A DNA stretch of 64,000 nucleotides from Marsupella aquatica (taxonomy: Eukaryota > Plantae > Marchantiophyta). The stretch's first letter is position 1. Every line of letters starts with the position of its first letter. Shown here piece by piece: positions 24,693 through 47,039 of the stretch. A model generated the notes under the pieces. The model made no database searches, was not told the DNA's origin, and saw only the letters and a list, made by a program, of their open reading frames with translations. The translations under genes and the position numbers were made by a program. The stretch covers positions 23,574,133 through 23,638,132 of the forward strand of contig OZ316892.1 in the NCBI GenBank assembly GCA_973895155.1, written 5' to 3'.

Positions 24693-24722
24693 CCGGGTGT
24701 CTTCCTCTGCCCTCTCCTCATG

Positions 24723-27700
24723 TCAGGAGACTGGTGGGAGAGTCCCTTTACTTGGTGTGTCACCCTCGACCTCCATGATATCAAGATATCCGACTTCTAG
24801 AGATTCAAACTTGGGAGCTTTGATAAGGAGAGTAGAATCTGAGAAGTCAGAAGTGTACCCATCATCTGATTGGGTTTCGCCCATATGTGGTTCATCCATC
24901 CAACTGATAGTGACTCGGGGTGTCCCAAAGGACATCTGTCGTTGGTGCCAATCAACCTTGACCTTGGCCTTATATAACCAGGGTCTCCCTAATAGCAAAG
25001 GATAGGAGGAGGGAACTTCAGGTCGGAGAACTACAAAATCTAAGGGGAAAGTCAGGCCCCCAATAATTGTGTCGATCCCAATAAGTTTTCCTACTGGCAC
25101 TACTCTGGATTGATCGGCCATGCGTAGTACTTGTAAGGTCTTTTCAAACTTATGGATGCCAATGTTGGATGCTGTTTCCTCGGTCATGATGTTCACACTC
25201 GATCCTCCGTCTACTGGTACTTCGGGTATTACACACCCCATGATCTGAACTTCAATTTCCGGAGGTCCTTTATCTTCCCATTCTAGTCTCAAGGCCTCCA
25301 CAGAAGGTAGTTTCCTTCTTTTCCTCCTTCCTGTCAGCAAGGTTCTTAACTGCTTTTTATAAGTGGGATTGTCTTCTAATAGCTCCCCAATCGTAATGTT
25401 GGCAGGTTGGCTCTTGACAACGTCCACGATATCATACCCCTTTGGTTTGAGTGTTGGTACCAAGGTCATCTTGGGTTCAGGCTTTTTTAGCTCTGGAGGG
25501 ACTTCCTTCCGTTCCACTAGCAGGGGTGCATCCTTGGTTAACTCATGTATTTGAGTTTTAACCTCTGTAGATATGTCGGGCTGGAAGTACTTGGGGTCAT
25601 ACCTGTCATAGGCTGGATCATCCTCTTTTGGGATACCTTCCTTTGCCGGTATCCTTGTTTTGCTCTTCTGTTTGGATGATTTCTTCCGCTTAGAACCATC
25701 CTCACCGTGCTTCTTCTCATGATGAGACTTGGATCTGGTAGTGGCGTAAGTTTCCAAAACACGGTCCCGTTCTTGGACCCGTAGGTTGGGCATTCCCACA
25801 ACATGGTCTTGTACTAAGTGCTCTAAATCAACATCCGGAATAGTGCCTGATAGACTTTGGGTATAAATATTATGCACCTCCTCCTCAGCTTCTGCTTCTA
25901 TGGTCACATGACTGCATTGCTCCCGATTTTCTTGGCTATATATCATCCTTACTTCTTCAGGTCTGGGTGCTTCCTTCACAGGCTCTTTAGCAAATCTTAC
26001 CATCATCTTGGGTTTCGGAGGATTTGGGCATTCCACAGGGAGATGACCTTCCTTTCCACAGTTGCCACAAATTGGTGTGTACCCTACTTCTCTCTTTGGG
26101 TACGGACATTCTGGTGAGTAATGCCCTGGTTGACCACAATTATAGCAGGTTCCTTGTACTCGTGGTGCTCCTCTGGGTGGATAGCCTCCCGGAGGTCCCA
26201 TCGGTGGTCTTGGTATAGGCCGATTAAATGAGGAAGGTCCTGCGGATTTTTGTTGGGCCCATGAAGTTGGTCCCGCAGCAGGGGGAAAGTATTGCCCTGC
26301 AAACGGTGCTTGGACCGCATAGGTATCTCCATAGTCTAATAACTCTTCCTCTTCTCCATAATTGACAGCTCGTTGCAATGAAGGGCACTCATGATGATAG
26401 TGTCCTTGGTTATTACAGCGTGTACACCACACATTATTTCGTATGGTGGGTGGGAGTTTCCTAGTTGGTTTAAATATAGCGGCATTCACAGAGAGTTTAT
26501 TCAACTTACTAGTCAAGGAATCCATCATTTTATCTAGGGTCTTGGCTTTCTGAGGTACCGTGCTTTTCTGCATCCTTGTGGTCTTGGTGTCCGCATCGTC
26601 AGAACTTGGACTGGAGCTTGAGCTACTGCTGGAGCCCGAGTCGGAACTAGTTCCTTCAGTAGTGGTAGTGTCGCTATCACCAGACTCCGAGCTTGAAGAG
26701 GACTTTTTCTTTTTCTTTTTCTTTTTATCCTTCCTCTTACCCTTCTTCAAATCTTTTTTTACTCTTTTCTTCTCAGAAACTTCTGAGTCCACGTATTTTT
26801 GTGCTGCTTCCTGAGCTTCCTCAAAGGTTGTACCACCTTCTCGTCTTACATACCTTGCAATTCGGGAGGGCAGCCCGTTAATAAACCAATCTCTCGTGGT
26901 GGACTTGGCTGTATTGGGATTATATTTATCCACTAGATCTAGTAATTTATCTGCGTACTTTCTTACTGAGCCATGTTTCTTCATGGTTAGTTGAGAGATT
27001 CTAGCAAAAGCCCTTGCCTCAACACCATCCTCCTTATATTTGTCCAAGAAACCGGTCTTGGTTTTTCCCCAGTCATTCTTATCTGGAAATCGATCATACC
27101 ATTTTTGAGCATTCTTTTTTAATAACCCTCCAAAAATCGTGGCTTTTTCAGCGTCCTGGGTTTGCCCATTTGAGGTGGCTGCAGCTTCAAATTCCTTGAG
27201 GAAAGTCTCAGCATCCTCCTTAGATGTTCCCTTAAAGGTATCGTATCGAATATTATTTCGAGCCATTTGAGGTCGTCTTATAGGAACCGGAATTGGGTTA
27301 ATTGGAGGATAGGCTCTCAGAGATTGTGAGCTAGTGCTGGTGACTGATCCTTGAGATGTTAATGGTGAAATTGAATTTACGGAATTTGGAGTGCTTATCG
27401 CACTTAAGCTACTGCTGGCACTTCCATAACCAAGCGAGGGTAGTGCCTCTGCTAATCTGACAGATTCATCAATAGGCGTTCTTTGAAGTAAAGGTGAGTC
27501 AGAATTAAATTTTAAAGATTCAATTTGCTGAATTCCTCCTTCAATTATGCTTTCATGCCTTGTATTGGTAGTTTTTCCTGTTCCAATTATCTGAAACGCA
27601 GGTGTTCCCTCATATTCATCCAAGCTTTGTGTTCGTCTCAGTGGTTTGGCTATGTCAATTTCTTTCTTCTTAGGCTTAGGTGAGATGTATTGGACATCCC

Positions 27701-27827
27701 TAGAGCGTAATTTATAAATTGTTGGTCGACTTGTTGCAGGCTTGTCTACTGTTCCTTCTATTTCATTTCGTTGGATGAGGGTAACTCGCTCTACTACATT
27801 TCCCGGTGTTGGGTAATCTGGGGATTG
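24723..27827 (-). CDS. Gypsy gag-protease, 5'-truncated at the junction with the LTR fragment
   Basis: Retrotrans_gag-like region, three CCHC knuckles (CTRCNNQGHYHHEC, CYNCGQPGHYSPEC, CGNCGKEGHLPVEC) and protease VDGGS...LLGRPWL. The frame stays open upstream to 27827. Confidence 0.88.
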   Translation of the reverse strand, partial: QSPDYPTPGNVVERVTLIQRNEIEGTVDKPATSRPTIYKLRSRDVQYISPKPKKKEIDIAKPLRRTQSLDEYEGTPAFQIIGTGKTTNTRHESIIEGGIQQIESLKFNSDSPLLQRTPIDESVRLAEALPSLGYGSASSSLSAISTPNSVNSISPLTSQGSVTSTSSQSLRAYPPINPIPVPIRRPQMARNNIRYDTFKGTSKEDAETFLKEFEAAATSNGQTQDAEKATIFGGLLKKNAQKWYDRFPDKNDWGKTKTGFLDKYKEDGVEARAFARISQLTMKKHGSVRKYADKLLDLVDKYNPNTAKSTTRDWFINGLPSRIARYVRREGGTTFEEAQEAAQKYVDSEVSEKKRVKKDLKKGKRKDKKKKKKKKSSSSSESGDSDTTTTEGTSSDSGSSSSSSSSPSSDDADTKTTRMQKSTVPQKAKTLDKMMDSLTSKLNKLSVNAAIFKPTRKLPPTIRNNVWCTRCNNQGHYHHECPSLQRAVNYGEEEELLDYGDTYAVQAPFAGQYFPPAAGPTSWAQQKSAGPSSFNRPIPRPPMGPPGGYPPRGAPRVQGTCYNCGQPGHYSPECPYPKREVGYTPICGNCGKEGHLPVECPNPPKPKMMVRFAKEPVKEAPRPEEVRMIYSQENREQCSHVTIEAEAEEEVHNIYTQSLSGTIPDVDLEHLVQDHVVGMPNLRVQERDRVLETYATTRSKSHHEKKHGEDGSKRKKSSKQKSKTRIPAKEGIPKEDDPAYDRYDPKYFQPDISTEVKTQIHELTKDAPLLVERKEVPPELKKPEPKMTLVPTLKPKGYDIVDVVKSQPANITIGELLEDNPTYKKQLRTLLTGRRKRRKLPSVEALRLEWEDKGPPEIEVQIMGCVIPEVPVDGGSSVNIMTEETASNIGIHKFEKTLQVLRMADQSRVVPVGKLIGIDTIIGGLTFPLDFVVLRPEVPSSYPLLLGRPWLYKAKVKVDWHQRQMSFGTPRVTISWMDEPHMGETQSDDGYTSDFSDSTLLIKAPKFESLEVGYLDIMEVEGDTPSKGTLPPVS

Positions 27828-30506
27828 GAAGTCAGGAGTGAGCGCCTATGTTCTGGATTCCTCCCCCTTCAAGGCCTGCTCCTCGTTTTGTTGCAAAGTC
27901 CCGTTGGAGTTAGCCGTAGCCTGTCACAATCGCGGGGCTCGCCAGTTCGCAAGTCGCAACTCTTAAAGTCGTAAAGTCTTAAAGTAGGGTTTACTCGTAA
28001 ACCCTTAAACTCTTAAACTATTAAACACTTCAACTCTTCAACTCTTAAACTCTTAAACTATTAAAGTAGGGTTTACTCGTAAACCCGTAAACTCTTAAAC
28101 ACTTCAACTCTTCAACCCTTAAACTCTTAATCTTCGGCAGAGTTTAGTTTACTCGAGTTATCAGCAAATATAGTTTAACTACTTCAAAAATTTAAAAATT
28201 TTCCGGTTTTCTTCATGACTTTGGAATTACTGCCTATCTACACAACCCGTCGTCGGAATCACAATATGATCGGTGCGCCGCGTTGCTAACTCCAGTGGCA
28301 ACGTCCTCGCCGAAAAAGAACCAAAAAAGTTACCGTTCAACGGACAGAATCTTTGTCGGACAGCCAAAAAACAGCTCTTTGTTTTTTTTGGGAATATTCC
28401 TGTACAGTCCGAGAGGTCTCATAGGGGGCCATTCCCCCTGTCGGAGCGATTAAAATGGAGGGCGGCAGGTCTTGGCACAAGGAGAACAAAGGGGAGGAAA
28501 AAATGGCTAAAAATAGGCCCTAAAGGGGGTCCAAATGCCCCTTAGCCAAAAATCCGCTCAAAAATGCGCATCCGCGTATGCGCGACGCGAGGCGGGCCAG
28601 GGAGTATTCGCGTATCGGGCCGCGCATTTACAAGGCGTATGGCCGTGTACACCTAAGGCAGGGTCCGCAACCGCGTCACGCGAAGCAGGAGGCGGGCGCT
28701 GCAGGGCCGGCCGAAGGGAGGGTGATGGGGGGTGCCGGGGCGCGATTAAAATGGCCGAGGCGGGCCAGGCTTGAAGTAGGAGCGGGGGCGCGGGGTCGTG
28801 ACCCTAAGGCAAGGCAGCGTCACCGACGGGAGGAAAACAAAAGAGGCCGGTGCGGGCTAGGTGCGAGAGGGATGCAGCTGCCGGCCGACTGCAAACGCGC
28901 CGGCCGGCGCTGCGCAGGGCGCCACCCCGCCACGAAAAATGGGAGTGCGAAGGGGGGGCAGGCAAATACCAGTATACAGGGCCGGGGGGTGTCGGGGAGG
29001 AGGGGGGAGTTCGGGTGTGTGTATACACACCCGAATACACACACAAGTCCCCCCATTAGACCCCCTTAAGTGGAAAAATTAACCCTAAAATGACAAATAT
29101 CGATTACTCACCTCTTAGCCGCTGTTTCTCACAAGAAAAGTGAACAATGTTGACGGGAAATGTTGCCGAATTGCACCGGCACAGTCTGTAGCTCCAGCAG
29201 AGTAAAAACTTTCCGCCGCGTCATCTTCACTCCGCGTCAAGTACCAATCCCGGGCTCAAAACGACCGCCTTGCCGTGATCAAACCGTTGAGCCGTGGCAC
29301 TCCGCGTTTCTTCCACCGAGTCAGACGTCACAAAGAGAAACCCGGTTCAGATGGGAACAAGCTCCATAGCTTGTGAAAAAACCTGAATGTCTCTTTCACT
29401 CGTCACGACGCACTCAGTAACAACTCGGTAGCAACTCAGCTACCGAAACAACCAGCTCGCATCAACCTTCAACAGGAGCTACAATGTGCGATCCCTCCCG
29501 CACCGCATAGCTCACACCGTTGAAAAATGCAAACTCTGGTCACTCCCCCGAAAAGCCGTCGAACACGAATAAAACCTGAACGACGCAAATTTCAAATCCT
29601 CCGCACCACGGATACCGATCAGCGAGTTCTAACCACCGTTAGAAAGCCCTCTCACTAACCTATCCGCTCAGCCACACATATTCGAGTTTCATGCGACAAA
29701 ACTCCAAATATCCCATCGACAATGAACGCTGGAAAAACCTATCACGAAAAAACCTCGTCACCTCCCAGGCATGCTTTGATACCACTTGTTGAGCATAGAC
29801 GACATTCGTAACAGCAAGCCCATGAACCATCCAACGCACAAGAGTCGACACAGAGAGATACGTGGTTCACCTCCACATGAGGCTATGTCCATGGGAACAC
29901 ACAAGAGCTTTACTGCACTCTAAACCGACCGGCCATACCAAGCATCCACAGCACAAGCTCTCCCTATCTCTCAACTAGCTCCATAACAATGAGCCTAAGT
30001 TCCACCAGGGTCTGGCATCAGCCCTAGCTATATACACAATAGCACTATCGCTAACATTAGCTAAGTCCTAACCCAAGTTAGCCTAACTATAGTTAGCTCA
30101 TGAGTCACAAGACTAGGGCAATATCTAACACAAGACAACCTCACAACCTCCACTTTCTAGCATAATTGTGGTCACAAGGGAGTGCCCCACCCCTAACCTG
30201 CAATCAAGCGGCGGTCATCAAGGCCAGCAAGCAGCAGCATCTAGCAGAAATTTGATGTCACACCATAAAACCTGCCTCACATCAAGCATTGCAAACCAGG
30301 GCTGCAGGTTTATTTATGTTGGCAAGGAGTAACGGGGGCCTCTCCATGGCTATCAACTCAGTGTTTTTAGCGGTACGAGGCAACCAAACTGCTGGAGACT
30401 CTCTAAAGCACTCGGTTTGAAGGGAGTTATTGCACAGAAGCAGACCTATCTGCAAAGGTTATGACTCTTATAGCAAAATCTTACAAAAGTCTTCAAAATA
30501 GAACCT

Positions 30507-30882
30507 TGTCACCCCATGTTGCATTTGAGTTGCAACTTTGTTGGTTGCACATGTGTTGTGAGTTTGGGAGGGTGACCTGGCATAGCAGGTCACCTGGTAG
30601 GGGTGACCTCTTCACCCAGGTTACCATGCCTTTGTGCCATGGGGGTATACCTTGGAGAATGAGGGATTAGCTCCTCATTCTTCCAAGTTGAGCCTCCCGG
30701 CACTAGTAGAGCTCATGTGAGTGTGGCTATGGTGAGAGAGAGAGAGTGTATGCCGGTTGGCATGTAGAGCGATATTGGCAGGGTTCTGCTATGTGTATAG
30801 ACTTGGAGTCCTGCATGGCTAGCGGGTGAGTTTGGCTTGACTTAGTGATACCTTGCAGCGGGGTCCCGTTTCGCAAGAGATT
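30507..30882 (+). repeat. Terminal repeat A1 (376 bp)
   Basis: Matches 45910-46285 with ~9 substitutions by eye, mostly transitions. Confidence 0.93.
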
Positions 30883-30955
30883 ACTTGGAAGAATGAAGGA
30901 GGAGAGCGGATGCTCTCAGTTTTTCTAAATTGTGCGGACCAACGGAGGTGCTCGG

Positions 30956-31849
30956 CCCTGGGCCCTCAGCTTACAAAATAATGAAACATACGTGCAAACA
31001 TTTGATGGGTATTAAATATCAAATCCGCAAATAATATTATAACACTATTCTAAGCAACAAGGTCCTTGTTTATATTTGCAACCAATTAGAAGAGGTGAAG
31101 GGCTTTCTAAAATGTGTCCCAAAGTTAATGAATTGAAGGGCCATAGTAATACCTAATGACACGCGTCACTTGTTCATTGGACCACGTGTCATCACACCAG
31201 TGGATTAGGGAGTTCTAATTTCAAGAAGGACAGTAGTGAAGCCCAATGGGTTTGTGTTGAGTGTGATGATTCCAGTATTTGTAATATTTGTTCTCAGTTT
31301 TAAGAAGTGGATGCTCCCATCCTATATGTATGGAGCAACATTAAGAATCTGTGGCCCAGTAAGATGTCTGGCACTTTATAGACAAGAGTAGTGGATGACT
31401 TCTTTGGCTTGTTAAGTGCAATGTCACCTCTAATGTCTTGTAGTGAGATTTTGTTGGAATCTTGTGGAGAACTTTGATATGTAGTCCCGTATGTAGTTTG
31501 AGTTAGATGTTTGTGTGCTAAAGCCCCAATGGCTTGCACACACATTGCCAAATATTATATGGCAATATGTTTGTTTAGTGTACTTGCCATTTAATGGTAC
31601 ATTAAATAAAATGTGCATTCATGATTGAATCTCTTCGCAAAAGATTTTTTCTATAACAAATGAAGGATGTTTTAAATCCCCAACTCTATCTGATTATAAT
31701 AACATATGTAAATTTTATATAGGACTGAAAATTCTTTTTAGAACAAACAAGATACATTTTAATGTTCTTCCAAAATATAACAAGGGGTACCTAGGGGGCC
31801 TTCGGTCACAGGTATGTCTCATTACATTTCCCTTAGTGAGGGCCCAAGG
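30956..31849. mobile_element. Non-autonomous DNA transposon (MITE-like) in the leader of the DNMT element
   Basis: TIRs ccctgggccctca / tgagggcccaagg (12 of 13 match). 8-bp TSD GTGCTCGG (30948-30955 / 31850-31857). AT-rich non-coding interior. Confidence 0.8.
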
Positions 31850-32249
31850 GTGCTCGGTGGAGCTCGGTGATTCATCCGTTCGTTCGTTGTTTGTTGGTGC
31901 CAATCGTTGGTGGGCGTTTGCTGATCGCTGGTTGATGCTGCTGGTTGGCAACACGTATCTGGGCGCGGAAGTGCTGTTGAAAATCATCATTGGTGGTAGT
32001 TGCTGCCAAGTGATTGTTGTCCCGTAGGAGTGCCACAGTTTGTTGCATAGCCAAACTGGAGACAGGAGTGACTCGTAGTGGTGCCCAATTTCGACCTTTG
32101 GAGGCAGAAGAGGGCACTGTGTCACCTGGGTGCGGCATTGGCACCGACCTTGCCGTGGAGGAGGCGACGCAATTACTGTCCCGATTGTCACTGTATTCAC
32201 GCATTAGTCCCTACAATTGGGACATGGAGCATTCCACGGATAGTCGGAT

Positions 32250-34500
32250 TCGGAGGTTTTTGGGAGATGTTGGCACCATGGAGTTGCCACATTTCATTAT
32301 GGAGTTTGAGCGGGTGTGATCAACAGAAGTTGCACAGCACGGCATTCTCCCCTTTCATGGCATGGCGGGCATTGTTCCAGCACTTGGAGGGGCCACCCAT
32401 GACTGACTATGAGGAGTTCCAGACGATGTATGCTGAGCACATTGAGTCTTGGAGACGCAAGTGGTCTCCAGATTACATCTCACTCACAAGTGAAGACGTG
32501 TCCCCGAAGGAGGAAGAGGGTGCTAGCAGCTCTAGCACATCGTTGCCAATCCCCAGGTTCAACCCGATGGTGGAGTTCTTCAAGGTGTTGAAGAAGAATT
32601 ACTAGGGTGTCCGCGTGGACAAGTTGTTGAGCCTCCAGACATTCAACAGGATAGAGGGTGAGAGTTTGCGCAAGGCGTACACGCGCATGAGACGGTTGAT
32701 CAGTACCACGGAGGGCATTACTGATGCTCAAGCTATCCAGATTTGGTACCAGGCCCTGGATAAGGATTTGAGGAACCGGGTTCGGTTTTTGGCGTTGGCC
32801 ACTGATGAGAAACTGACACTGGAGAAAGTTTTCCTGCTTTCTGATACCATTGATATGAATCGGTCAGAGGAGAAGGTTGTCACCCTTGGATTTGGCAAGG
32901 AGTCCCCTGGAGGCAGTGTTGCTAGTCCATCTGGTGGGCAGCAGCCACATCGATTGGGGAATGTGCTAGGGAGGGCACAGCCCAATGCTCCCGGTGGTGC
33001 TGTTGTTGGTGGCAGGAGAGCAGTAGCACCCCAACGTCCCTTTCAGCCCTCTTATGCCACTCAGGTGGAGTGCTGGCGCTGTAAGGGACCTCATAACCAG
33101 CTTGATTGCCCTGATCGAAAGGGTCCACCACGTGCAAAGCCGGGCGGAGCTGCCACTAGACAGCCTGATCTTAGGCGTTGTGACCATTGTCACCAAGATG
33201 GGCATACTATTGACAGGTGTTTTCAGCTGCATCCAGAGACGTTTTGGTGCTGCCCACAGGGGAGTTCCTCCTAGAGGTCGTGGAGGCCGCCGCCCTGGTC
33301 GTGGAGGTGACAGGGTAGTCCCCGCAGCTGATGCACAGACCACCGATCCTGCAGCAGCCACCAGGATCCAAGAGTTGGAGAAACAATTGGCAGCAACCAA
33401 TTTGGTGTTGCGGGCCCTTAGCAACGGTGAGGCCTCTAGTTCCCGCACCATGGATAGTTCACAGATTGCTCCTGGATTCAGTGACTTGGATTACATGTGC
33501 GGTGTTGCACAATTAGACAGTGGTGCAGCTGTCACTAGAGTAGTGGCTAGGGTTGCTGAGCCACGAGGTGCTGCCGTGGAGCTGGATCCACACTGAGGGG
33601 AGGCCAGCCGGCAACAGAGATTACCACAGAGTTTTACATTGATAGATACTGCACGGACTTCTACTATGGCACCCATTGTTGACAGTAGTGGACCTTCTGT
33701 CCACTCTCGTGGTCACATGGGGCCACCCAATATTGCTTATGACATGGTCACTAGCCTAGTGTTGGGGGCGGCTAGAGCCCTGTGTCAGGTTCCATTGTTT
33801 TCTTGTGCTCACTTATCTTCTCTTGGAGTTCCTGTTGCGGATGTGTTGCGCCAGGCAGCTGCATTGTATGATACTGGAGCAGTTTTGGCATCTAGCTATG
33901 ACACAGCTGGTCCACCGGTTGGCCCAGATGCCACAGGGTCCAGCCATTCTTTGTTGAGAGATGCTAAGACTTCTTGGCAGGCTTCTGTTGCTCGATTGAG
34001 TGAGCTCCCTGCCAGACCAGCCATTGATCGGAGTGTTGTGACTCCCGGCGTGGTTGTGGTGGACAACCGTGCTGGTGTTTTTACATTGGTTGGCCCTAGT
34101 GGCACAGTGTATGTGCCACCCCGTGTATTGTTGGATTCAGGTGCACAACCTCTCATGCTGGGGAAAGCAGCTGTCCAAGGCCTGGGCTTGAAGAAGGTTG
34201 AGGTGGAGCCTTGCCCATTTCAGATTCATACATCTCTTGGTGTCCAAGAGAAGGCACAGCACATGATGCGAGACAACCTTACTGTGAGGTTAAATCCCCA
34301 CCGCACTGGAGATGACTCTGCCTTGAAGGTGAAAGCCATTGTCACACCTATAGAGTCTTATGATGTTTTGGTAGGGGGAGCTGTACTCTACCCCATGGGC
34401 TTTGTGTTGGATTACTGGCAGGAGACTGTTCACTATCGACCAGGATGGCAGTCTGGTGATGGTAGCAAGTGTGAGTTACCCGTCCACTACTTTTTGCGTC
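32250..34500 (+). pseudogene. gag (two CCHC-like knuckles) and aspartic protease of the DNMT element, disrupted
   Basis: CWRCKGPHNQLDC, CDHCHQDGHTIDRC and protease VLLDSGAQ...YDVLVGG. Several in-frame stops and frameshifts. The start is approximate. Confidence 0.75.
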
Positions 34501-34837
34501 GGACTGAGCCATCACCAGAGCAGATATTAGTTTGTCAGCTTGTGCTGGAGCTATCACCTGGCCAGGTGATCTCTTGGAGGGTAATGCCCATGCTGCAGAC
34601 ATCCCCGTAGCAGAGCAGTTGCACAACTCCTCAGGTAACCACAACATTCCCATTGTCCCACAGGTATGGGGTTTCACTTCTGAGTTACAGCAGCATGCTG
34701 ATTCATATATACAGGCAGCATGGCGTGAACCATTTGCCCCTTTCACGGAGCCACCTATGGTGGATGGCATTCCCAGGTTGATCACAGTGTCCCCATTGGA
34801 CACCACACCCATTTTGTGGACATACCCTACTGAGGGT

Positions 34838-35790
34838 ATTCGCTTGTTGGAATTGTTTGGTGGCATGAGCACTGGTTTAGCTGCTATCTTACATGCTGGC
34901 ATTAGAGTGCAGCAGTATCTCTATGTGGAGCGCGATGACACAGCCCGACGTGTCTCATTGCGTCATGTGCTCAGTTACATCAGCAGTTCCCTGATTTGTT
35001 GCCTCTATCAGCTATCAGAGGTTATCAGCACACTTTGCCAACAGACATCTCACTTTTGGGGGCGCCAGATTTAGTATGCATTGGTGTGATTCACCTTGTC
35101 ATTGCTGGGTGGCCATGCCAGGGCCATTCCTCTACTGGGACAGGATCTGGTCTCAAAGACCATCGTTCTCACATGTTTTGGGAGATGCTGCATGTCATGA
35201 GGTTTTTGCAGGAGCAGCAGCATGTCTCTCTTGCCTATGTTCTGGAGAATGTTCCTTTGTTGGGTGATACTCGGTCACAGATGGTGGCTAGTATGCACCA
35301 AGTGCGGTCCTGGTTAGGACCTGCTATTTTTTTAGATGCTGCTAGTGTCGGATCGACAACACATCATCCACGATTATGGTGGACCAACTTGATGCCGCCT
35401 GAGGTTTTGCGGAGGGCATATCAGCACATTGTGCGGCCTGTTGGGCTCACTGTGGACCGCATTTTGGATGCTGGACGGCATGCACAATTGGTGCATCACA
35501 ATGATCGCTCCCCATCGGCAGTGGTGAACCGGGTTGGTCAGCCCCGTGCAGCACTACCCACTTTGGTGAGTTTCCCCTCATTGTATGCTTACCGTAATGG
35601 TGGACCGGGGTTAATTTGGGATTCTCACCACAAAGAGCTGACGGAACCTACTGCTGATGAGCGTGAGCGTGCTATGGGATTTCAGACTCGCCCCACAGCA
35701 GTACCCTCAGTGACTGGAGCAGCACGCCGTCACATTCTGGGTCAGGCTATGGATCTTAATTGTTTGACTTGGATTATGAGCTTAGCCTTG
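34838..35790 (+). pseudogene. DNMT3-like C5 cytosine DNA methyltransferase domain embedded in pol (one frameshift near 34970)
   Basis: Motif I IRLLELFGGMSTG, motif II YLYVE, motif IV IAGWPCQG (catalytic Cys codon 35116-35118), motif VI LENV (ENV at 35245-35253), motif VIII HPRLWWTNL, and C-terminal ERERAMGF...RRHILGQAM. These are colinear with DNMT3 IRVLSLFDG / GGSPC / ENV / RARYFWGNL / EMERVFGF / RQRLLGRSW. Confidence 0.88.
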
Positions 35791-36132
35791 GCAGAGCAGC
35801 GCCGGTTACAATCATCTGTGACACCTCCACATGGATGCTCTTCCTCTCTTGAGTCCTTAGCGTTCAGAGCAGGGGGCGATAGTGCCACAGATCGTCATCC
35901 CTGGACTTCATGGGGAGTTAGTGGAGAGGTCAGTGGGCTTTCTTTTTTGCAGCAGCATGGTATTGCTGCTCGTGAGGTTGCAGCATAGCAACCACAGTTG
36001 GCGCTCTCTGCACCTTCTGCCAAGGTTACCATTGACAGTTGGGAGCCAACTATTGGCCCCAAGATTACTGGAGGTGAGAGACAATGTGTACGATAGTTTC
36101 TACGGAGTTATGGAAGTTGTTTTGCTTTCAGC

Positions 36133-38489
36133 ATGCAGGATTTGGGCATGTTAAAGGGACCAGGCATCCGGATAGATTTGGCAGTTGATGCGCCCATCTT
36201 TCGGAGACCATATCGATATTCAGATATGGAGAGGGCACTGATTCAGGCAAGGTGCCAGGATTTGTTGGCAGCACGACTTGTGGAGAAGTCATTTGGTGAG
36301 TATGCTTCTGCTACTGTGATGCGAGCAAAGAAGGATATGCATGGCAATTGGACTGACAGGAGGATGTGTGGAGACTATCATCCAATTAATCAGCAGACTA
36401 AGTCTGATAGGTATGCCATGCCCACACCGGAGGAAATATTTGATGCCATTGGGCATGCGAGAGTGTTTAGCATATTGGATCTCAGGGCTGGATATCACCA
36501 ACTACCTATCAGGATTGGTGACAGGCAGAAGACAGCATTCTGGGGGATTGATGCTCATGGGAAGGATGTGTTGTATCAGTGGCTATTCTTACCGTTTGGA
36601 TTGAAGAATGCGTCAGCTAAATTTTGGAGGGTCATGGATCGGATTTTGGCAGACCTGGATTTTGCCAAATGTTATATAGATGACATTATTGTCTACAGTG
36701 ACACTGTGGAGGAGCATGCTATATATTTGCAGCAGTTGTTTGAGCGGCTGAGAGAACATGGATTGAAGCTGCATCCTGGCAAATGTAAGTTCTTCCATGA
36801 CCAGATTGCATATTTAGGGCATACCATTTATCCAGGTGGATTGGGTGTGCAGCAGAGAAAGGTGGAGGCAATTGCTGGCATCCCTCAGCCTACAGATGTG
36901 AGTAGAGTCCGAGCATTTTTGGGGCTTGCAAACTTCTACCGAAGATATGTGAAAGGATTCAGTGCAATTGCAAAATCTTTGACGTTACTTACGAGACTGG
37001 ACCATGAGTGGCAGTGGGGTGATGATCAAGATAGAGCTTTCCATCAGTTGAAGGAGAAGCTCACATCAGCGCCCATCTTGAGGAGACCTATCAGGGGGCA
37101 TCCATTTAGATTGCATACTGATTGGAGCATGCTGGGACTTGGGGCAGTGCTCACTCAGCAGGATGATGAGGGAAGGGAGTTTGTGGTAGCATATGCCAGT
37201 CGATCGAATAACACTACAGAATCAAAGTATGGCTCCTATGAGGGAGAATGCTTGGCTGCAGTGTGGGCAGTGGCTCATTTTCGATGTTACTTGTTGGGTA
37301 ACCCCTTCACTCTTGTTACGGATCATCAACCACTCAAATGGTTGATGGAGTCAGACAGCTTACTGGTAAGCTTGCTCGTTGGGCACTCATACTTCAGTAG
37401 TATGATTTTGAGGTCTTGCATATCCCTGCCCGAGCCAGAGGGATTTGACAGGAGCACGTTGGCATGATTAGGCAGACGAGGAGATGGTGCCAGGTTGGCA
37501 TGCTTCTGCTTATTTGTGCTTGTTGCAGAGTGTGGATGGTCTTGGGGCGGTGATATCATTGGAGAGGCCCAATGCAGACTTTGTGGATCCAGAGATTTCT
37601 AGTGAGGAGTCTGTTGGACATGATATTCATGATGATGCAGATGTTGTGATGTATCTGCGCACGGGCAGCATGCCAGGCATGGTAACTGCCAAGGAGAGAG
37701 ATCGCATCCTACAATGAGCTAAGAGGTTTAGATGGGAAGGATCTCACTTGTTGAGAGTGTGGGATGATGGCAGGGCGCGATTGGTACCAGTCCTCCTTTA
37801 TCCCAGCGTGCACGATTGGTGCGACATGCTCATGAAGAGCTTGGACATTTTGGAGTGAAGCGGACCTACAGCTTACTCCAGACCCAGTATTGGTGGTGTG
37901 GGATGCATGCTGAGGTGCAGCAGTTTGTGACGTGATGCACTGTGTGTGACAGAGTGAGAGCATCATTTAATGCTCCTACCCCGCAACTGCATCCCTTGCC
38001 GATTATGGGCTTGGGATATCATTGGAGTTTAGATTTTGCTGGACCCTTACCACTGACTAGACGTCACAATCGTTATGCCTTAGTGATGGTGGAGCACTTT
38101 TCTTATGCCTTTCTGGACCGTGTATTGAGCCATTTTGGTGCTCCTGCTGAGGTTTTGACTGACCAGGGGAATGAGTTTCGTGGAGATTTTCAAGCCCTAT
38201 GTGATCAAGCATTTATTGATCACCGTACGACATCTAGGGATCATCCACAGGCAGATGGATTGGCAGAGAGAGTTGTCCAGACAGTAAAGAGAGGATTGCG
38301 GAAGTATGGCTTGCATAAGGGTCACGTGAATGATTGGGATATCCAGCTACCATGGTTAGCGATGGGAGTAGGTAAGCATCTCTTGCATCCTTTTCACCAT
38401 ATTTGTTGCTCTATGGTAGGGACCCAATGTTGCCAGCAGCCATTCAAAGGGAGGTTGTTGAGGTGTTGCAGTTGGATGACCCTGACATG
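36133..38489 (+). pseudogene. RT, RNase H and integrase (zinc finger and DDE core) of the DNMT element, disrupted and cut by Copia-B
   Basis: LDLRAGYHQ, LPFGLKNA, YIDD (36673-36684), TDWS, YEGE, TDHQPL, HEELGH, SLDFAGP, TDQG and ADGLAER. Confidence 0.9.
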
Positions 38490-41400
38490 TGTTAAGGATT
38501 GCTCTTAGTCTTGTGACTCAAAGGTTACGGCACTTAGGCTAACCACAGTTAGGGTCTTAGCTGAGGTTAGGTTAGTCGTGTGTGACCTTGTATATACCAG
38601 GGCTAGTGTAAGCCGCTGGTGAGTGGTGCTTACTGATTGTAACGGAGCAACTTGAGGAAGAGGGAGAGCATGTGTGTTTGTTTACTCTTGAAGTAAAGCT
38701 TGAGTGTTCGTGTGGACGTAGCCTTGGAGAAGAGATGAACCACGTAGGATTGTGTCGACTACGTGTGCTTGGAATAAGTCATGGTTGTATGGTCGTTGCA
38801 AATGACGTCTTAGTTCAACAATTGGTATCAGAGCAAGCCTGGGAGGTGACGTTGAGGTGATCAAAATTTTTGTGACATGTTGGTGACGGTTTTTCTAGCG
38901 GTTAGAGTTGGTGGATTTCATGGAGTTCTATCGCATGGAACTTGGAGGTGTTGGGCTCAACGGATAGATCGGGGCAAGGGTTTTCCGACGATGCAAAGAA
39001 ATCTCTGAACGGAGTTTGTGGTGCGGAGGAATTCATGTTTCCGTCGTTCTGGATTTTTTGTGATTCGTGTTCGATGGTTTTCTTCGATGGTTCTTTTGGG
39101 GGGGAGCTGAGATCATTTTCTCGACGGTGTGAGCTTTGTGGTGCGCGAGGTATTACAACCTTTAGCTCAATTCGTAGATCAGGCAAAGCTGATCATTTCG
39201 GTAGCTGGTTTGCTATCGAGGGTGTAGTGAGTGCGATGTACCAAGCAAAAGAGCCGTTCTGAGTTTCTGACTAGCTATGGAGTCTTCTTTTGACTGAAGC
39301 GGGGTTACTTGTCGTTGCGTTCGACTCAGAGGAAGAAACGGGAAGTGCAACGGCTCAACGGAGAGATCGCGGTGTAGTGGTCATTTTGAGTCCAAGATTG
39401 ACACTTGACGCGGAGTGAAGGAGTCATGACGGGAATTTTTTACTCTGCTAGAGTTGCAAATGGTGCCGGTGCAATTCGGTAACATTTCCCATCGACAACT
39501 AGTCTTTATCTGGTGTAAAGTGATAACGGCAGTGTGAGTAACCCAACAAATTTATTTTTTGTGCATATTTTGCCTTAGAATAGGGCCTTTTTTTGTGGTG
39601 TGTATACACACCCTCCCGACCCTTGCACCCCTGTCAATACCTCGTCAGCGACCCCCTCCTCCTCCTCGCTAATACTCCCATCGCGGACGACCCGAACATT
39701 GCGGCCGGCGTGGACGTCGCAGCCGGCATGAACGTCCCAGACGTCCCGACCGTCGCGGCCGTCCCGGATGTCCCAAAAGTCCCGGCTGTCGTAGCTCCAT
39801 CCATGCCCATTCCGACTCGGTTTTTTACTCCCCGGCCCCTGGTGCACTGCCTGCGCCTTTTTTTTAAGACAGTATTTTTATGTTAAGGGGCTTAAATCCC
39901 CTTAGGCCCGGTTTTTTAATCCTTTCCAGGCTCCTCATTGGTTAAGCGGCATCCCGGGCCGGATGACCCACTAAATTAACCGTTTGGACAGGGGGAACGC
40001 CCCCCTGTGAGACCTGTTGCACAGTCCAAGGAATATTCCAAAAAAATAGAGAGATGTTTTTCGGGCTTTAGTCGAAGATTCCAAGGTCCGAACGGTAACT
40101 TTTTTTGGATCTTTTTTGGCGAGAACGTAGCCACTAAAGCTAGCAACGTGGTGCACCACTTGATTTGAATTTCCGACGACGGGTGGTACTTGGAATTTTT
40201 CTTATTCCCCAAGGTGGTCAAAACGGGGAAGAATTTTTGAGTTTTACCCACCCCGACCGAAACGTGAAAAAGTTTTTCGTCGAAACTCGATTTCAATTTT
40301 GAATTTCAGTGTTGGCTTGCTAGGTTGGTGGGCTAAGTGGCGGTGACAAGTTTCAAGTTTTTTGGAAAATTGCAAAAAACGGCATTTTTTCGTGATTTGG
40401 ATTTGAGTCAACGAGAAGGAAGGAAGGAAAAAGCATATAGGGAGCAGCACAGCAATAGCACGTGGAGAACGTTGGGAGGACAACGATGGCATCCAAGTTT
40501 GGAGGTGTCAAGTTTAAAATGGAAAAATATGATGGGCGCACAGATTATTTGCTATGGGAGAAGCAGGTTAAGGGAATTCTTCGTGCTATGGGCCTAGATC
40601 ATCTGCTATCGACTCGGGAGGAGTCTAGCAGTGAGGAGGAGATCTCGTTGAGGAAATGGAGGCAAGAGCAAGTGATTGTTGTGAATGCGGTTATGGTGTA
40701 TCTGAAGCCACATATCATTAAGAAGCTGGACGACTACGAGGATTGCGTATCCTTATTCAAGGCCCTTAGAGAGAAGTACTACCGAGAGGATACCTCAGAT
40801 TGGTTGTACAAGAAGTCTCTCTTGATGAGCTTGAGGCTAAAAAAAGGAGGCAAGCTTCGAGATCACTTGGATGAATTCGACAGCCTAGTTGTAGATTTGT
40901 CAAATCTTGGCAAGGGAGTGGAAGATGAAGATAAGGCATTGCTTCTTCTCAGTTCCTTACCCCCATCGTATCAAGGTTTGAAGCAGGTTCTCTTGTATAG
41001 AGATCTCAAAATCATTTCATATAATGAGGTGGTAAGCTCTTTGTTGTCAGATGATGCACAGAAGAAACTGGGTCATGCCCAGACACCATCTTCATCTGGC
41101 AGTGCATTGAATGTGAACCGCGGGAGGACTCAACAGCGGATGACTGGTGAAAACAGGTCCTTTTCACAAACATACCCCTCACGGAATAGAGGCAAGGAGA
41201 AATCTCTAGAAAAGAAACCAATTACATGTTGGAAATGTAACAAGCCTGGCCACATGAAACGAGACTGTCGAGTCAAGCAGACTCATCAACCATCAGCGAA
41301 CGCAGCCACTGATGTTGATTTTATTGACTTGCTTGATGATGAAATCTTGTGAAGTCCAGATGTTGCCCTTTGCATTTCATCTAGTAACAACGGTGATCGG

Positions 41401-44400
41401 TGATAAATGGATTTTAGATTGTGCCTGTACCTATCACATTTGTTGTATGAAAGAGTTTTTTACTTCTTACTCAGTATCAACCGGTTCCATGTTGATGGGG
41501 AATGATCATCCTTGTCAAATTATTAGAATTGGATCCGTGAAAATTTGGATGTTTGATGGAGCTGTGCGAACAGTGAGTAATGTCAGACACATATCTGACA
41601 TGAAAAAGAATTTGATTTCTCTTGGAATGCTGGAAGCAAATGGATGTCGGTGGAGTTCTGCTGATGGTATTCTTCAAGTGTCAACCAGAGGCAAGGTTGT
41701 CATGAAGGGTAAGCGGCATAGGAATCTATATTTGTTGGAGGGCAACGTGATTTGTGAAGAAGTCAATGTAACTAGATCTCAAGGCGAGATGACTCAGTTA
41801 TGGCACTACAGATTAGGACACATGAGTGAAAAGGGTTTGGCGGTACTTCGCAGGAAAGGACTTCTTTCTAATTTGGAATCTACTAAGCTAGATTTTTGTG
41901 AACACTGTATGCTTGGGAAGCAGCACAGGAGAACCTTTGGTGTTGGAACTCACAATACCAAAGCTATACTTGAGTATGTATATAGTGATGTGTGGGGTCC
42001 AGCCCCAACTCTCTCACTTTTTGGAAAATTGTACTATGTCACGTTCATTGATGATTACTCACAGTATGTGTGGATCACATTTCTACATGCCAAGTCTGAA
42101 GTTTTTGGCACTTTTAAGAAGTGGAAAGCCCAAATTGAGAATCAGACTGGATCCAAGGTGAGATATCTGTGATCAGATAACAGCGGGGAGTACAGTTCAA
42201 GTGAGTTTGAACTATATTGTGCAGAGCAAGGGATTACTCGTCATCTCACGACAGTTTATACTCCTCAACAGAATGGTGTTTGTGAGCGGCTAAACCGAAC
42301 ACTATTGGAGCGATCGAGGAGTATGTTGAGCCAATCAGGTTTACCGCATGAATTTTGGGCTGAAGCTATAAATACGATAGCTTATTTGGTAAATCTTTCT
42401 CCTTCAAGTGCAATCAGTTTCAAGACGCCGTTTGAAATGAGGTATGGACGGCACGCAGACTATCAGGTTTTGAGAGTCTTTGGAAGTGATGCATATGCTC
42501 TCACACCTAAGCAAAATCGATCTAAACTAGATTCTACTTCCAAGAAGTGTCTTTTTCTTGGTTATCAACCAGGTGTGAAAGGTTACAGGCTATGGGATCC
42601 AGAAGCTTGTACGTTGCTTGTCAATAGAGATGTATCCTTTAATGAATCCAGATCATCAAAGGAGGGGGAGAATGCTCAGGCTTCCCATACTGACAAAGGT
42701 AAATCTCCTATCCTGGACCATGTTGTGGGGGAGATTGGTCATGAGAGTTTTCATGACATAAATGAAGGAGGTGCTCCGAGAATGGAGCTGGTTCCGGTAT
42801 TGGAACAAGAGGAGCAAGTTGTTGGAATACCTCAAATTCAACCAACAGAACAAGATCAACCAGAATCATCAGCTAGAAAATCAAGACATACTACTCGAGC
42901 TCCTACAAGGTATGGACAATCGACAGATTCATCAAGGTTAGATGATGTTGACATTGCACCTGAAGATGATGACAGAGCACTGATCTTGGAAGAAGGAGAA
43001 CCTTCTTCTTATCATGAGGCGTGCATTTCAGACGAGAAAGATGAATGGAATGCAGCGATGCAGAGGAAGTTGCAATCTTTAAGTGACAACAGAACATGGG
43101 AGCTGATGCAACTGCCAAGTGATCAACAAGTGGTGGATAGCAAGTGGATTTACAAGCTGAAGGACAACTCTTCAGATGGAGGAGACAAGATATACAAGGC
43201 AAGGCTTGTTGCCAAGGGATTCACTCAAGAGAAGGGAGTGGATTACAATAAGGTCTTCTCTCCAGTTGCCAAGTATTCCACGATATAAATTTTGTGTCAA
43301 CTTATTGTGTTTTTTGATCTGGTGTTAGATCAAATGGATGTTGTTACTGCTTTTCTCTATGGCACCTTGGAAGAACAAATTTTCATGAGGCAACCACTGG
43401 GCTTTGTGAAAAAGGGCCAAGAGAGTTTAGTTTGTAGGTTGCTTAAGTCCTTGTATGGATTGAAGCAAGCTCCTCGATAGTGGAACAAGCGGTTTGATGA
43501 TTTCATGCTTGCACAAGGATTCACTAGGATGGTGTATGACCCTTGTGTGTATACGAAATCAGTCAAGAATTGTGTGTTTGGTTTGCTCATTCTGGTGCTC
43601 TATGTGGATGACATGTTGATTGCGGCTAAGGATCAAACTGAGGTTGACAAACTCAAATTCCGAATGAAGGATCTTGGGAAAGCCAAGAGGATCTTAGGTA
43701 TGGAGATTACGAGGAACTTTGAACTGGACAATTGTGGCTGAATCAAGGCAAGTATGCTGAAAAGGTACTTGCAAGATTTAACATGAAAAATTGTAAGCCA
43801 GTAAGTATTCCTTTGGCTCCATATTTCAAGTTATCATCGGCTTTCTGCCCCACGGATCCAGTGGAGAGAGGCTTGATGACTAAGGTTCCTTATGAGAAGG
43901 CAGTGGGCAGTCTAATGTATTTGATGACATGTACCAGGCCTGATCTAGCCCTAGCAATGGGCAAAGTGAGTAGATTCATGTCAAATCCAGGGAAGGTATA
44001 TTGGGAGGCTGTGAAATGGATTCTCAGGTATCTTAAGGGCACAATAGACTATGGTCTGTTGTTTGATAGTAAATCAAACAAAACCAAATCTTTGGTTTGC
44101 TATGTAGATTCTGACTACGGAGGCTGTCTGGAAACAAGGAGGTCAACGACTGGGTATGTGTTTACTCTTGGAGGAGGATGCATAAGTTGGAGATCTACCT
44201 TGCAGAAGTGTGTATCTCAATCTACTACAGAAGCAAAATATGTTGTAGCAGCAGAAGCAGCAAAGGAAGCAATTTGGTTGGATAAGCTGGTCACTAAGAT
44301 GGGATTGGAGCATGGAAAAATGGCTCTTCATTGTGACAGCCAGAGTGCGCTTCACCTAGCTATTAACCAGGTGATGGATAGCAAGGTGAAGCACATTGAC

Positions 44401-45101
44401 ATCAGGTACCATTTTATTAGGCAAGCAATGTCTGATAAAATGTTTGGGCTAGTCAAGATTGATGGAAAACTCAACCCGGCTGATGCTTTTACCAAAGTGA
44501 TTCCTTTGGAGAGTTACTCAAGACACCGTGCTACTTTGCAGGTTTTGCATTTGCAGCACAAGTAGAGTAACTTAACAAGATGTGATTTCTGTATATGAGT
44601 TACTCAATCCTGTTATGGCTACGGCTTAATTCTAGTTAACTCTTAGTTAACCTTAAATGGTTTTTAGGAGGACACCTATGGTTTTAGGTGATTGTCTAGA
44701 ATTTCCCGCTGAGTATCTCATATGGATAGCAGAAATTGCAGTCCCCAAGACTAGAGTCAAGGGGGAGTTTGTTAAGGATTGTTCTTAGTCTTGTGACTCA
44801 AAGGTTACGGCACTCAGGCTAACCACAGTTAGGGTCTTAGCTGAGGTTAGGTTAGTCGTGTGTGACCTTGTATATACCAGGGCTAGTGTAAGCCGCTGGT
44901 GAGTGGTGCTTATTGATTGTAACGGAGCAACTTGAGGAAGAGGGAGAGCATGTGTGTTCGTTTACTCTTGAAGTAAAGCTTGAGTGTTAGTGTGGACGTA
45001 GCCTTGGAGAAGAGGTGAACCACGTAGAGATTGTGTCGACTACGTGTGCTTGGAATAAGTCATGGTTGTATGGTCGTTGCGAATGACGTCTTAGTTCAAC
45101 A
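38490..45101 (+). mobile_element. Ty1/Copia LTR retrotransposon (Copia-B, 6.6 kb) inserted in the DNMT element's integrase
   Basis: LTRs 38490-38820 and 44770-45101 (~8 differences). TSD ACATG (38485-38489 / 45102-45106). PBS tggtatcagagc at 38823-38834. PPT agggggagtt at 44760-44769. Confidence 0.95.
40486..44565 (+). pseudogene. Copia-B gag-pol, disrupted
   Basis: MASKFGGVKFKMEKYDG, CWKCNKPGHMKRDC, WILDCAC, YSDVWGP, KARLVAKG, YVDDML and KHIDIRYH. Stops and frameshifts present. Clearly the same family as Copia-A. Confidence 0.92.
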
Positions 45102-45106
45102 ACATG

Positions 45107-45625
45107 TGGATGCGAGCTTGTTCTCAACGGGCAGACTTGTTTCGGAGAGTGATGCCCATGGCATTTGAGAACTTAGCTATTGCACAGCATCGGGATACTT
45201 TGAGGTATGCCACTATTCGGGGAGGAGGATATCGCCCTAGCATCAGGCGATTTTATTCTGGAGACTATGTGTATCTGCAACAGACAGCACCTACTACTTT
45301 GGATGTCACTGCCGGACGTACTATTCTACGAGTACATAAGGTTTTGCCATCAGGCATTCTGGTTTTAGAAGGTCGTGATGGTATGGTTTGGAAGGATCAT
45401 GTGCGCAACTGTGCACCTTGTCACCTTCCAAACATTGATGATAGCATAGATCCTAGTCTAGTAGTGATACCTGCAGGCTTACGATGTATGTTGTGTGGAT
45501 CCGCTCGTGGAGCTGCAACCATGTTGATTTGTGATGGTTGCTCAAGAGGTTGGCACTTAGCGTGTTTGACGCCACCTCTTGATTCAGTCCCTAAAGGACG
45601 GTGGTTGTGTCCCAATTGTAGATAG
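45107..45625 (+). CDS. Integrase C-terminus of the DNMT element, ending in a PHD finger
   Basis: Resumes right after the Copia-B TSD. RRFYSGDYVY, then a C4HC3 PHD: CMLC...LICDGCSRGWHLACLTPPLDSVPKGRWLCPNC (45485-45619), then a stop. Confidence 0.88.
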   Translation, partial: WMRACSQRADLFRRVMPMAFENLAIAQHRDTLRYATIRGGGYRPSIRRFYSGDYVYLQQTAPTTLDVTAGRTILRVHKVLPSGILVLEGRDGMVWKDHVRNCAPCHLPNIDDSIDPSLVVIPAGLRCMLCGSARGAATMLICDGCSRGWHLACLTPPLDSVPKGRWLCPNCR

Positions 45626-45800
45626 AGAGTGGTTTTAGTTAGCACAAAACTCATTAGGCAGTATAGATTGCAGGCAGGCGATTAACGATGGGGCTCCTTT
45701 GCATCCGGCCTCTTGATCTGTGCACCCAAAAGGTGTATACTTCCTTCTAGTTTTTGGGCTAGTTATAGTTAGCGGGACCTAACCACCAGCTAGGGGGACG

Positions 45801-46392
45801 GTTATGGATTTTGGCGTACATGTGTTGTGTGTCGTGTGATTATTTGTTTTCTTGTTTACATGGTGTGCCGCGATGTGAGTTGTGTATGGATGTGTGTCCG
45901 CACGACAGCTGTCACCCCATGTTGCATTTGAGTTGCAACTTTGTTGGTTGCACATGTGTTGTGAGTTTGGGAGGGTAACCTGGCATAGCAGATCACCTGG
46001 TAAGGGTGACCTCTTCACCCAGGTTACCATGCCTTTGTGCCATGGGGGTATACCTTGGAGAATGAGGGATTAGCTCCTCATTCTTCCAAGTTGAGCCTCC
46101 CGACACTAGTAGAGCTCATGTGAGTGTGGCTATCGTGAGAGAGAGAGAGTGTATGCCGGTTGGCATGTAGAGCGACATTGGCAGGGTTCTGCTATGTGTA
46201 TAGACTTGGAGTCCCGCATGGCTAGCGGGTGAGTTTGGCTCGACTTAGTGATACCTTGCAGCGGGGTCCCGTTTCACAAGAGATTGTTATGGATTTTGGC
46301 GTACATGTGTTGTGTGTCGTGTGATTATTTGTTTTCTTGTTTACATGGTGTGCCGCGATGTGAGTTGTGTATGGATGTGTGTCTGCACGACA
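45801..46392 (+). repeat. 3' repeat block B1-gc-A2-B2
   Basis: B1 45801-45907 and B2 46286-46392 (107 bp, one mismatch) flank A2 45910-46285. The B1/A2 junction is the palindrome GACAGCTGTC. Confidence 0.92.
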
Positions 46393-47039
46393 ACCTATCT
46401 GAAACCTTGCTTCTCCAGCCATGACTGGTGAGTGATTCTTTCCATGAATCTTTTTTGGTAACTGCATCATGTATTAAATTTTTTCAAGAGAACTCAAGCA
46501 CCTAAAATACTAAAGTATTGATATTGGTTTTTCTTGTACTTTTAGGGGCATTTATGGAGAAGAATGCACAATCAAGATTTGGATCAGTTCATTATGAAAA
46601 TTCTCCTCTATTTTTACTAAAATTATTAACAAGAAAACTATCTTTATGAAAATTCTCCTCTACTTTTATTAAAATTATTAACAAGAAAAATATTTTTGCT
46701 GTCAAGTATATCAAGGTCATGTTGTTGCAGTAAGGTTATGGACAATAATAACCCCTCAAAAGTCAAGATGAAGCTCTAAGTTTGGGGGAGCATTATGGCC
46801 CACAATGCCCTATAAACAGAACTGTGCTATATACTTTATGCTTCTCGTGACTGTTCATTTAGGAGGAAGAACTTTGGGCAAGATTTCTATCAAGGTAAAA
46901 AAGATTCTCTCCTGTTACCCAATTTTTTTAAATTAAAATCTCTCATCTTTCAGAACACTATGGCCCAAAATGCCCTAAATAGGATACTAATATATTTAAA
47001 AGGCTTGGCCTGTGAAGAAGGTTAACGAGGAATCAACTG

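Follow-up and report, generated by a model that had tools for sequence, protein, structure and literature searches.

Evidence for integrase cleavage at an internal attachment site in a Gypsy-type retroelement with split direct repeats from the liverwort Marsupella aquatica

How can a retroelement of the Ty3/Gypsy type insert into a chromosome when its predicted complementary DNA (cDNA) does not end in TG and CA? This question is raised by a locus in Marsupella aquatica, located in a stretch of 64,000 nucleotides (assembly GCA_973895155.1, contig OZ316892.1, positions 23,574,133 to 23,638,132), hereafter the window. The element occupies window positions 30507–46392 on the plus strand, and two different repeats, A and B, take the place of a pair of equal long terminal repeats (LTRs), in the order A-internal-B-gc-A-B. 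The obtained results confirmed that this layout is the normal form of the family, as it recurs in the window's own family and in six other sequence families. Comparison of these copies gives good support to cleavage by the element's own DDE integrase at an attachment site inside the repeats. As to the DNA that is cut, we favour, with moderate confidence, a self-primed cDNA of B-gc-A units that is joined end to end, most simply as a 2-LTR circle, and opened by the DDE integrase at the internal CA-gc-TG.

Repeat A1 (30507–30882) starts with TGTCA, forms the left end of the element and would carry the promoter, R and U5. A polypurine tract (45792–45800), found at the same place in relatives, adjoins repeat B1 (45801–45907), which ends in CACGACA. 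B1 is followed by a GC spacer (45908–45909), repeat A2 (45910–46285) and repeat B2 (46286–46392), the right end of the element. The two copies of A differ at 9 of 376 positions and those of B at 1 of 107; no additional copy of A or B was found inside the window. The target-site duplication ACCT flanks the element on both sides (30503–30506 and 46393–46396). The B1/A2 junction, CACGACA-GC-TGTCA (45901–45914), equals the two element ends joined by two bases, while the A2|B2 joint reads AGAGATT|GTTATGG. An earlier interpretation made from the letters of the window, the sequence-only reading, had placed A1, B1, GC, A2, B2, the ACCT at both ends and the tract directly before B1, all of them correctly. 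Perfect 10-base palindromes are not rare as such, with 61 in the window; the junction palindrome carries weight because of its position and its conservation in other families.

The window's own family was sampled in contigs of four public runs, which were placed on the element ends; these Logan contigs are too short to connect the left flank with the right flank. Mixed flanks were observed behind the GACA end in all four runs (17, 6, 8 and 10 contigs; agreement 0.41–0.50) and, in three of these runs, also ahead of the TGTC start (10, 4 and 11 contigs). The end of A stood ahead of B in 9, 3, 3 and 5 contigs of the four runs. Several diverged contigs crossed A|B and then continued into other flanks, and one contig crossed tract-B-gc-A. 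A 211-base contig in two runs reproduced the window's junction between B2 and its flank with 0 differences, which means that this right junction is not a misassembly. A metagenome scan with an integrase alignment then extended the sample to other families: 503 relatives were confirmed, and the best 80 were retained as loci. These included three complete long elements of the form A-internal-B-att-A-B (L018, L019 and L060), where att is the internal attachment site, and 14 distinct complete B-att-A-B right ends, with no ordinary LTR pair in any of the 80. The alternative of an ordinary two-LTR element that was rearranged in a single event or misassembled, named by the sequence-only reading as what would undo it, is refuted by this recurrence in independent insertions and families. 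The only point left to it is that no single contig among those listed spans the window's whole B-A-B block, so the check for misassembly came out clean for the right junction and not for the block as a whole.

The closest named proteins came from Marchantia, Calypogeia, Sphagnum and Riccia, followed by Klebsormidium and chlorophytes; the Klebsormidium integrase-PHD proteins were 51–55% identical to that of the window. A tree of the integrase end (36 rows, including 18 of the 80 loci) grouped the window, all junction-bearing loci used and the bryophyte and Klebsormidium proteins in one clade (98/92), and placed the chlorophyte PHD integrases in a separate clade. Judged by sequence similarity, relatives of the family occur in mosses, liverworts and a charophyte alga. 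Among viral contigs, no relative was found with a single reverse transcriptase query and none with an integrase alignment query; three distant loci showed terminal overlaps of assembly type only.

The unit of reverse transcription is set by the sites at which its two strands are primed. The polypurine tract adjoined B1 in all families examined. A tRNA primer site was considered and rejected, as none followed A1 in seven elements. The bases after A1 (30883–30901) start with ACTT, lack the tRNA-type TGG and are complementary to a predicted self-primer inside A (30671–30688; −27.9 kcal/mol), a score reached by 1 of 500 shuffles. A TATA-like element, the putative promoter, is located 25 bases upstream of this self-primer (30646–30651), and a similar box was seen 25–34 bases upstream of the primer in four of the seven elements examined. 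The complementarity was also rarely matched by shuffles in L039 (0/500), L060 (0/500) and L018 (5/500), and the same pairing was present in L031, L044, L066, L083 and L008. The primer sequences differ among five families, each pairing best with its own site: duplexes within families ranged from −16 to −31 kcal/mol, and those across families reached −12.8 at best. This covariation in five families predicts a primer site of the Tf1-like self-priming type. With the tract adjoining B1 and the self-primer site adjoining A1, the predicted unit of reverse transcription is therefore B-gc-A, in agreement with the sequence-only reading. The predicted cDNA is [B-gc-A]-internal-[B-gc-A]; its outer ends therefore lack TG and CA, and A2|B2 is the join of both ends.

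All seven families, that of the window included, have CACGACA-NN-TGTCA at the B1/A2 junction. The A repeats of these seven families do not align at all, and their B repeats have common short end stretches in two pairs only. Across 21 distinct junctions the spacer was GC in 11, AC in 5, GT in 4 and AT in 1, that is, GC or its transition products. In eight elements with both ends visible, the target duplication was a perfect 4 bp in five, carried one mismatch in two and was absent in one. The window alone fits a duplication of 4 bp or of 5 bp (AACCT, if the last A of GACA is counted); 5 bp was rejected, since L019 and L083 are compatible with 4 bp only. The TGTC and GACA ends, the 4-bp duplication and the loss of the GC spacer on insertion, all proposed from the window alone, thus hold in relatives. 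We also considered B alone as a short TG..CA LTR and rejected it: B1 starts with GTTATGG after the tract, and the T before B2 belongs to A. Two further observations concern the repeats themselves. The B repeats of family 3 (e.g. L082:8960–8993) end in a short tandem of 15-base CACGACA-containing units, which are half-sites repeated upstream of the terminus, and at L045:1628–1929 a B end borders immediately on the middle part of an A in inverted orientation, the arrangement expected if an element had inserted into its own repeat or that of a sister.

Insertion by a DDE integrase is recognisable by its CA-3' ends, by the missing spacer and by the duplicated bases of unrelated targets. The enzyme itself can be read in L031, which has two long open frames, with the integrase at 5086–8226. 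Both HHCC and D,D(34)E are preserved there and in relatives where the pattern is readable, and the catalytic spacing is 34, not 35, in all seven motif-readable proteins of ten, including those of Klebsormidium and Pleodorina. No match to the tyrosine recombinase family was obtained among 56 six-frame fragments of the window element and 15 open reading frames of L031, in line with the DDE assignment of the sequence-only reading. Taken together, these comparisons point with high confidence to cleavage by the integrase at the internal attachment site. Split direct repeats otherwise mark tyrosine-recombinase retroelements, and a recombinase supplied by another element might integrate the circle, leaving the DDE integrase as a passenger. 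The CA-3' ends, the spacer loss and the 4-base duplication of unrelated targets are, however, hallmarks of DDE enzymes; bryophyte and Klebsormidium integrases alike retain the catalytic motifs, and the searches above found no recombinase in the element. This makes a recombinase acting in trans very improbable.

The following sequence of steps is proposed. Transcription would begin inside A1, about 25–30 bases behind the TATA-like box, and stop in A2. The covariation suggests that the first 15–22 bases would pair right after A1 and prime the minus strand, as in Tf1/Tf2. Under the general rules of retroelements, the polypurine tract would prime the plus strand and complete [B-gc-A]-internal-[B-gc-A]. 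To judge from the joints, the end of A would then be joined to the start of B, mostly blunt and at times with loss or filler. The element ends and the duplications suggest that the integrase would nick after CA on both strands of the palindrome, which would produce 5' overhangs of 2 bases, as at a normally processed end; insertion with a 4-base stagger would follow, and GC would be lost. Opening at the upstream site would give A-internal-B-gc-A-B. Only this form has R at both transcript ends, and it would thus be able to copy itself. The short form, A-internal-B, would be a dead end; it would originate from one-LTR circles, from a double cut at the two sites or, at a later stage, from B-by-B deletion.

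The forms found among the loci bear on this proposal. A B1 end was readable in 63 of the 80 loci, and the remaining 17 were excluded from the form count. After copies of the same locus were merged, 48 distinct readable right ends were counted: 23 ran on into att-A (21 by pattern and 2 by alignment) and 25 did not. The short form is about as common as the long form, with four complete examples (L008, L011, L034 and L083), and its copies were no younger than the long copies (P 0.47 and 0.80). In addition, in one diverged unitig of the window's own family the tract and B are followed by sequence that is not A. The collapse of young identical repeats was rejected as the sole source of the short form, because short copies are as diverged as long ones and because of this unitig. 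Two loci outside the form count, L031 and L066, read B-att-A-primer site-leader, an arrangement that may reflect assembly collapse, a one-LTR circle or the mirror form A-B-gc-A-internal-B. Another right end (L004:1165–1798) reads B-att-A-primer site and then an inverted A (180 to 1), which stops exactly at TGACA before the flank; its arms differ by 5%. This is a single fold-back copy whose left end lies outside its contig. It resembles the product of fold-back priming from a copied primer site, followed by trimming at the attachment site, and the inverted end at TGACA suggests that any available site can be cut to define an end.

The second B repeat and the joint before it offer a further view of the cycle. 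In family 3, the B1-B2 distance was 0.070 within elements and 0.114 between elements, with diagnostic indels in common. The A|B joint was identical in four of five copies of family 1, with filler in L019, and fell into three types across eight copies of family 3. L063 and L075 have diagnostic letters in common and different joints. From these comparisons, B2 and the A|B joint look as if they were remade in each cycle; the patterns fit end joining or an end-to-end jump of the reverse transcriptase, and not inheritance through RNA.

Several results weigh against the end-joined circle or its supporting steps. The mirror form, which the sequence-only reading had predicted as an alternative layout, was not seen: no B stood upstream of A1 at any of the ten visible left ends, L011 having 58 upstream bases only. 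Five long against zero mirror elements (P about 0.03) do not suit a symmetric 2-LTR circle, which predicts equal frequency, although the mirror form could be lost by faster deletion between its close 340-base A copies. The fold-back end of L004 would not result from a single cut in a simple circle. The B1/B2 test in family 1 was star-like and carried no signal (0.072 within and 0.062 between elements). The primer match of L019, whose A1 is about 30 bases shorter, was not significant (468 of 500 shuffles), and no primer/site pairing was found in L011 and L034 at the blastn threshold. L034 is also the element without a target duplication. The permuted provirus envisaged by the sequence-only reading therefore stands as regards the internal cut and the loss of GC, while its circular substrate is weakened by the failure of the mirror form, the abundant short form and L004. 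The 2-LTR circle is a likely, though unproven, substrate of the integrase.

The same cut could be made with no circle at all. The integrase would then act on two sites of a linear cDNA extended at its right end by a further B-gc-A piece, supplied by strong-stop DNA, by a template jump of the reverse transcriptase or by a second cDNA; sites 1 and 2 would give the short form, 1 and 3 the long form, and 2 and 3 a solo A-B. Such a route accounts for the missing mirror form (0 of 10 left ends), for the many short copies (25 of the 48 right ends), no younger than the long ones, and for the right end of L004, which is an inverted A-side half-site. It needs, however, an unexplained bias towards addition on the right only, and a full dimer would again yield the mirror form. 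Moreover, the 2-base spacer makes every site a perfect mimic of one circle junction, and L004 is one copy with no visible left end. We regard the linear route as possible but rather unlikely. Cutting at an internal site is common to it and to the end-joined circle, and the high confidence placed in such cutting is the sum of what we grant to each of the two.

A copying cycle like that of PAT and Ngaro would alter the account at an earlier point. The RNA would cover the element from the first base of A1 to the last of B2, B1-A2 would bridge the ends into a circle, and the joint and B2 would be inherited through the RNA, so that the insertion enzyme alone would differ. The repeat order equals that described for PAT-like elements, Ngaro and VIPER in the accessible part of PMC6681497, the same joint occurs in most copies (in the own family, and in four of five in family 1), and the absence of the mirror form also suits such a cycle. 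Against this, the canonical tract at B1 and the covarying primer site at A1 mark B-gc-A as the synthesised unit, the sister copies L063 and L075 differ in their joint, and B2 follows the B1 of its own element in family 3. We therefore consider inheritance through RNA improbable and retain the end-joined cDNA, cut at the internal site, as the preferred reading.

The coding region of the window element follows the Gypsy order of protease, C5 methyltransferase, reverse transcriptase, RNase H, integrase and PHD finger, all on the plus strand. A broken gag-like region (32014–33593) contains two CCHC-like motifs, recognised by eye, and has no Pfam match. It is followed by an aspartyl protease region (33597–34607; weak Pfam match PF13975, E 0.003), a C5 cytosine methyltransferase split across two frames (34508–35985; PF00145, E 4.6e-7) and a reverse transcriptase with RNase H of the Ty3/Gypsy type (36097–37464), whose closest solved relative is Ty3 (E 1.7e-64). 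The integrase zinc-binding domain and DDE core (37768–38489) are broken, and Ty3 is also the best solved relative of the core. The integrase C-terminal region with the PHD finger (45107–45622; PF00628, E 5.5e-12) lies beyond a nested 6.6-kb Copia element (38490–45101) with ordinary TG..CA LTRs and an ACATG duplication; no match to a chromodomain was found at the integrase end, which carries the PHD finger instead. The LTRs of this Copia differ at 7 of 331 positions, roughly equal to the divergence of A1 and A2; it is a later insertion, outside the element's mechanism. With stops, frameshifts and the Copia interrupting its integrase, the window element is a dead, broken copy of a Dnmt- and PHD-bearing Gypsy family. 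It has the Ty3/Gypsy domain order, a DDE integrase with HHCC, a polypurine tract and primer site, TG..CA termini and a short duplication, and it departs from Ty3/Gypsy elements in lacking two equal LTRs bounded by the primer site and the tract.

Other features were identified elsewhere in the window. A Copia on the minus strand (12711–30130), with 344-base LTRs and a CAAGA duplication, hosts a second Gypsy element, and an LTR related to those of this Copia is located at 9658–9999. The second Gypsy (21360–28248, minus strand, and 17713–21359) has long open gag and pol frames. Its 421-base repeats start with TGTAGA and end in GACTTC without CA. A 799-residue frame with no Pfam match (18893–21289) follows the second repeat, and a third ACTCTTAA-rich tract is present at 18597–18708. 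This element possibly represents another unusual LTR layout. A frame with a lipocalin-like domain (2954–4387, minus strand) and one with a C2 domain (55103–55987, plus strand) probably represent host genes; a partial duplicate of the C2 region lies at about 56900–57930.

In the textbook view, as given in the accessible part of PMC4372172, the ends of linear cDNA are used for integration, and circles are dead ends or at most a reserve. In the family described here, the predicted cDNA ends carry no TG or CA, and every insertion must therefore come from cutting inside the DNA. A wider proposal is that the attachment site of an entire streptophyte Gypsy clade no longer lies at the cDNA ends but has shifted into the LTR, so that the integrase must open the internal palindrome of an end-joined, circular cDNA and distinguish its two copies. 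It would be the first DDE retroelement with an obligatory circle-junction route, combined with self-priming and with an element-encoded cytosine methyltransferase that could mark one site; we hold this proposal as evenly balanced between true and false. The family would offer a natural, directly testable case of an integrase that relies chiefly on cutting a palindromic junction, and it would show that a tyrosine recombinase is not needed for split direct repeats to arise. The layout also escapes structure-based LTR finders that require two equal LTRs, such as those used in PMC6317226 according to its accessible text, so bryophyte repeat catalogues probably miss or mislabel such elements. In practical terms, a circle-inserting donor that uses a 14-base site with a 4-bp duplication could serve moss and liverwort genetics.

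An early model of retroviral integration placed the reaction at the circle junction. The copy-out-paste-in elements IS3 and IS30 use a comparable intermediate, as their DDE enzyme, of the integrase fold, opens a junction of two element ends with a short spacer. They are DNA-only bacterial elements in which the junction is a product of the transposase instead of part of a repeat that reverse transcription restores. The preferred reading would link Gypsy integrases mechanistically to such circle-forming insertion sequences.

The family and its layout are already known. The legend of Fig. 4c in de Mendoza et al. (2018; PMC5890265) gives KnitGypsy-Dnmt3 of Klebsormidium nitens a DIRS-like repeat arrangement with Gypsy domains; this element and that of the window both carry a C5 methyltransferase within a Gypsy pol and A-coding-B-A-B repeats (Fig. 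1e and 4c). The likeness is one of descriptions: the Klebsormidium integrase-PHD proteins that cluster with the window are not labelled KnitGypsy-Dnmt3, and two methyltransferase searches returned no Klebsormidium-named match. The family is barely described, the accessible text of PMC5890265 being silent on the mechanism of KnitGypsy-Dnmt3 and on its termini, target duplication, junction palindrome, priming mode and short form. The statement of the sequence-only reading that no Gypsy element had been so described thus fails for the layout and holds, within that text, for the ends, the target duplication and the mechanism. Beyond this layout and a brief mention of the family in a 2026 preprint, no description of an internal site, target duplication or route in a Gypsy element was found in a search that left out most subscription journals and Repbase. 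New here are the self-priming site, the renewal of B2 and the joint, the short form, the missing mirror form and the fold-back copy ending at an inverted junction.

Among other retroelements, Gypsy-7a_cRei of Chlamydomonas (bioRxiv 10.1101/2022.06.16.496473) is, by its available description, a Gypsy with a PHD finger and slightly asymmetric LTRs, the left one being without the final 8 bp of the right; it is described as a two-LTR element, with no methyltransferase listed. PAT-like elements, Ngaro and VIPER have the order A1 ... B1-A2-B2 with the element ends joined at the internal junction, as far as PMC6681497 was accessible, whereas the window family has a DDE integrase, a protease, a polypurine tract and a 4-bp duplication, with no tyrosine recombinase found. 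Tf1/Tf2 and their relatives (Tf1/Sushi, Tcn1) likewise have a primer site that directly follows the 5' repeat and can pair with a stretch within it (accessible parts of PMC5341516 and PMC6317226). According to these sources, Tf1/Sushi and Tcn1 carry two equal TG..CA LTRs and a chromodomain, in contrast to the permuted repeat and PHD finger of the window family. The closest parallel to the cut itself comes from retroviruses: the accessible parts of PMC1180852 for foamy virus and PMC4372172 for HIV-1 describe a side route in which integrase cleaves the palindromic 2-LTR junction and 2 bases are lost. The likeness to the window family lies in a palindromic CA-NN-TG that a DDE integrase cuts, the bases between the CAs being lost. 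In these viruses, however, the junction arises only by joining of the cDNA ends, and its cleavage restores a normal provirus. In the window family the site is encoded in the repeat and the predicted cDNA ends lack TG and CA, so internal cutting would be obligatory.

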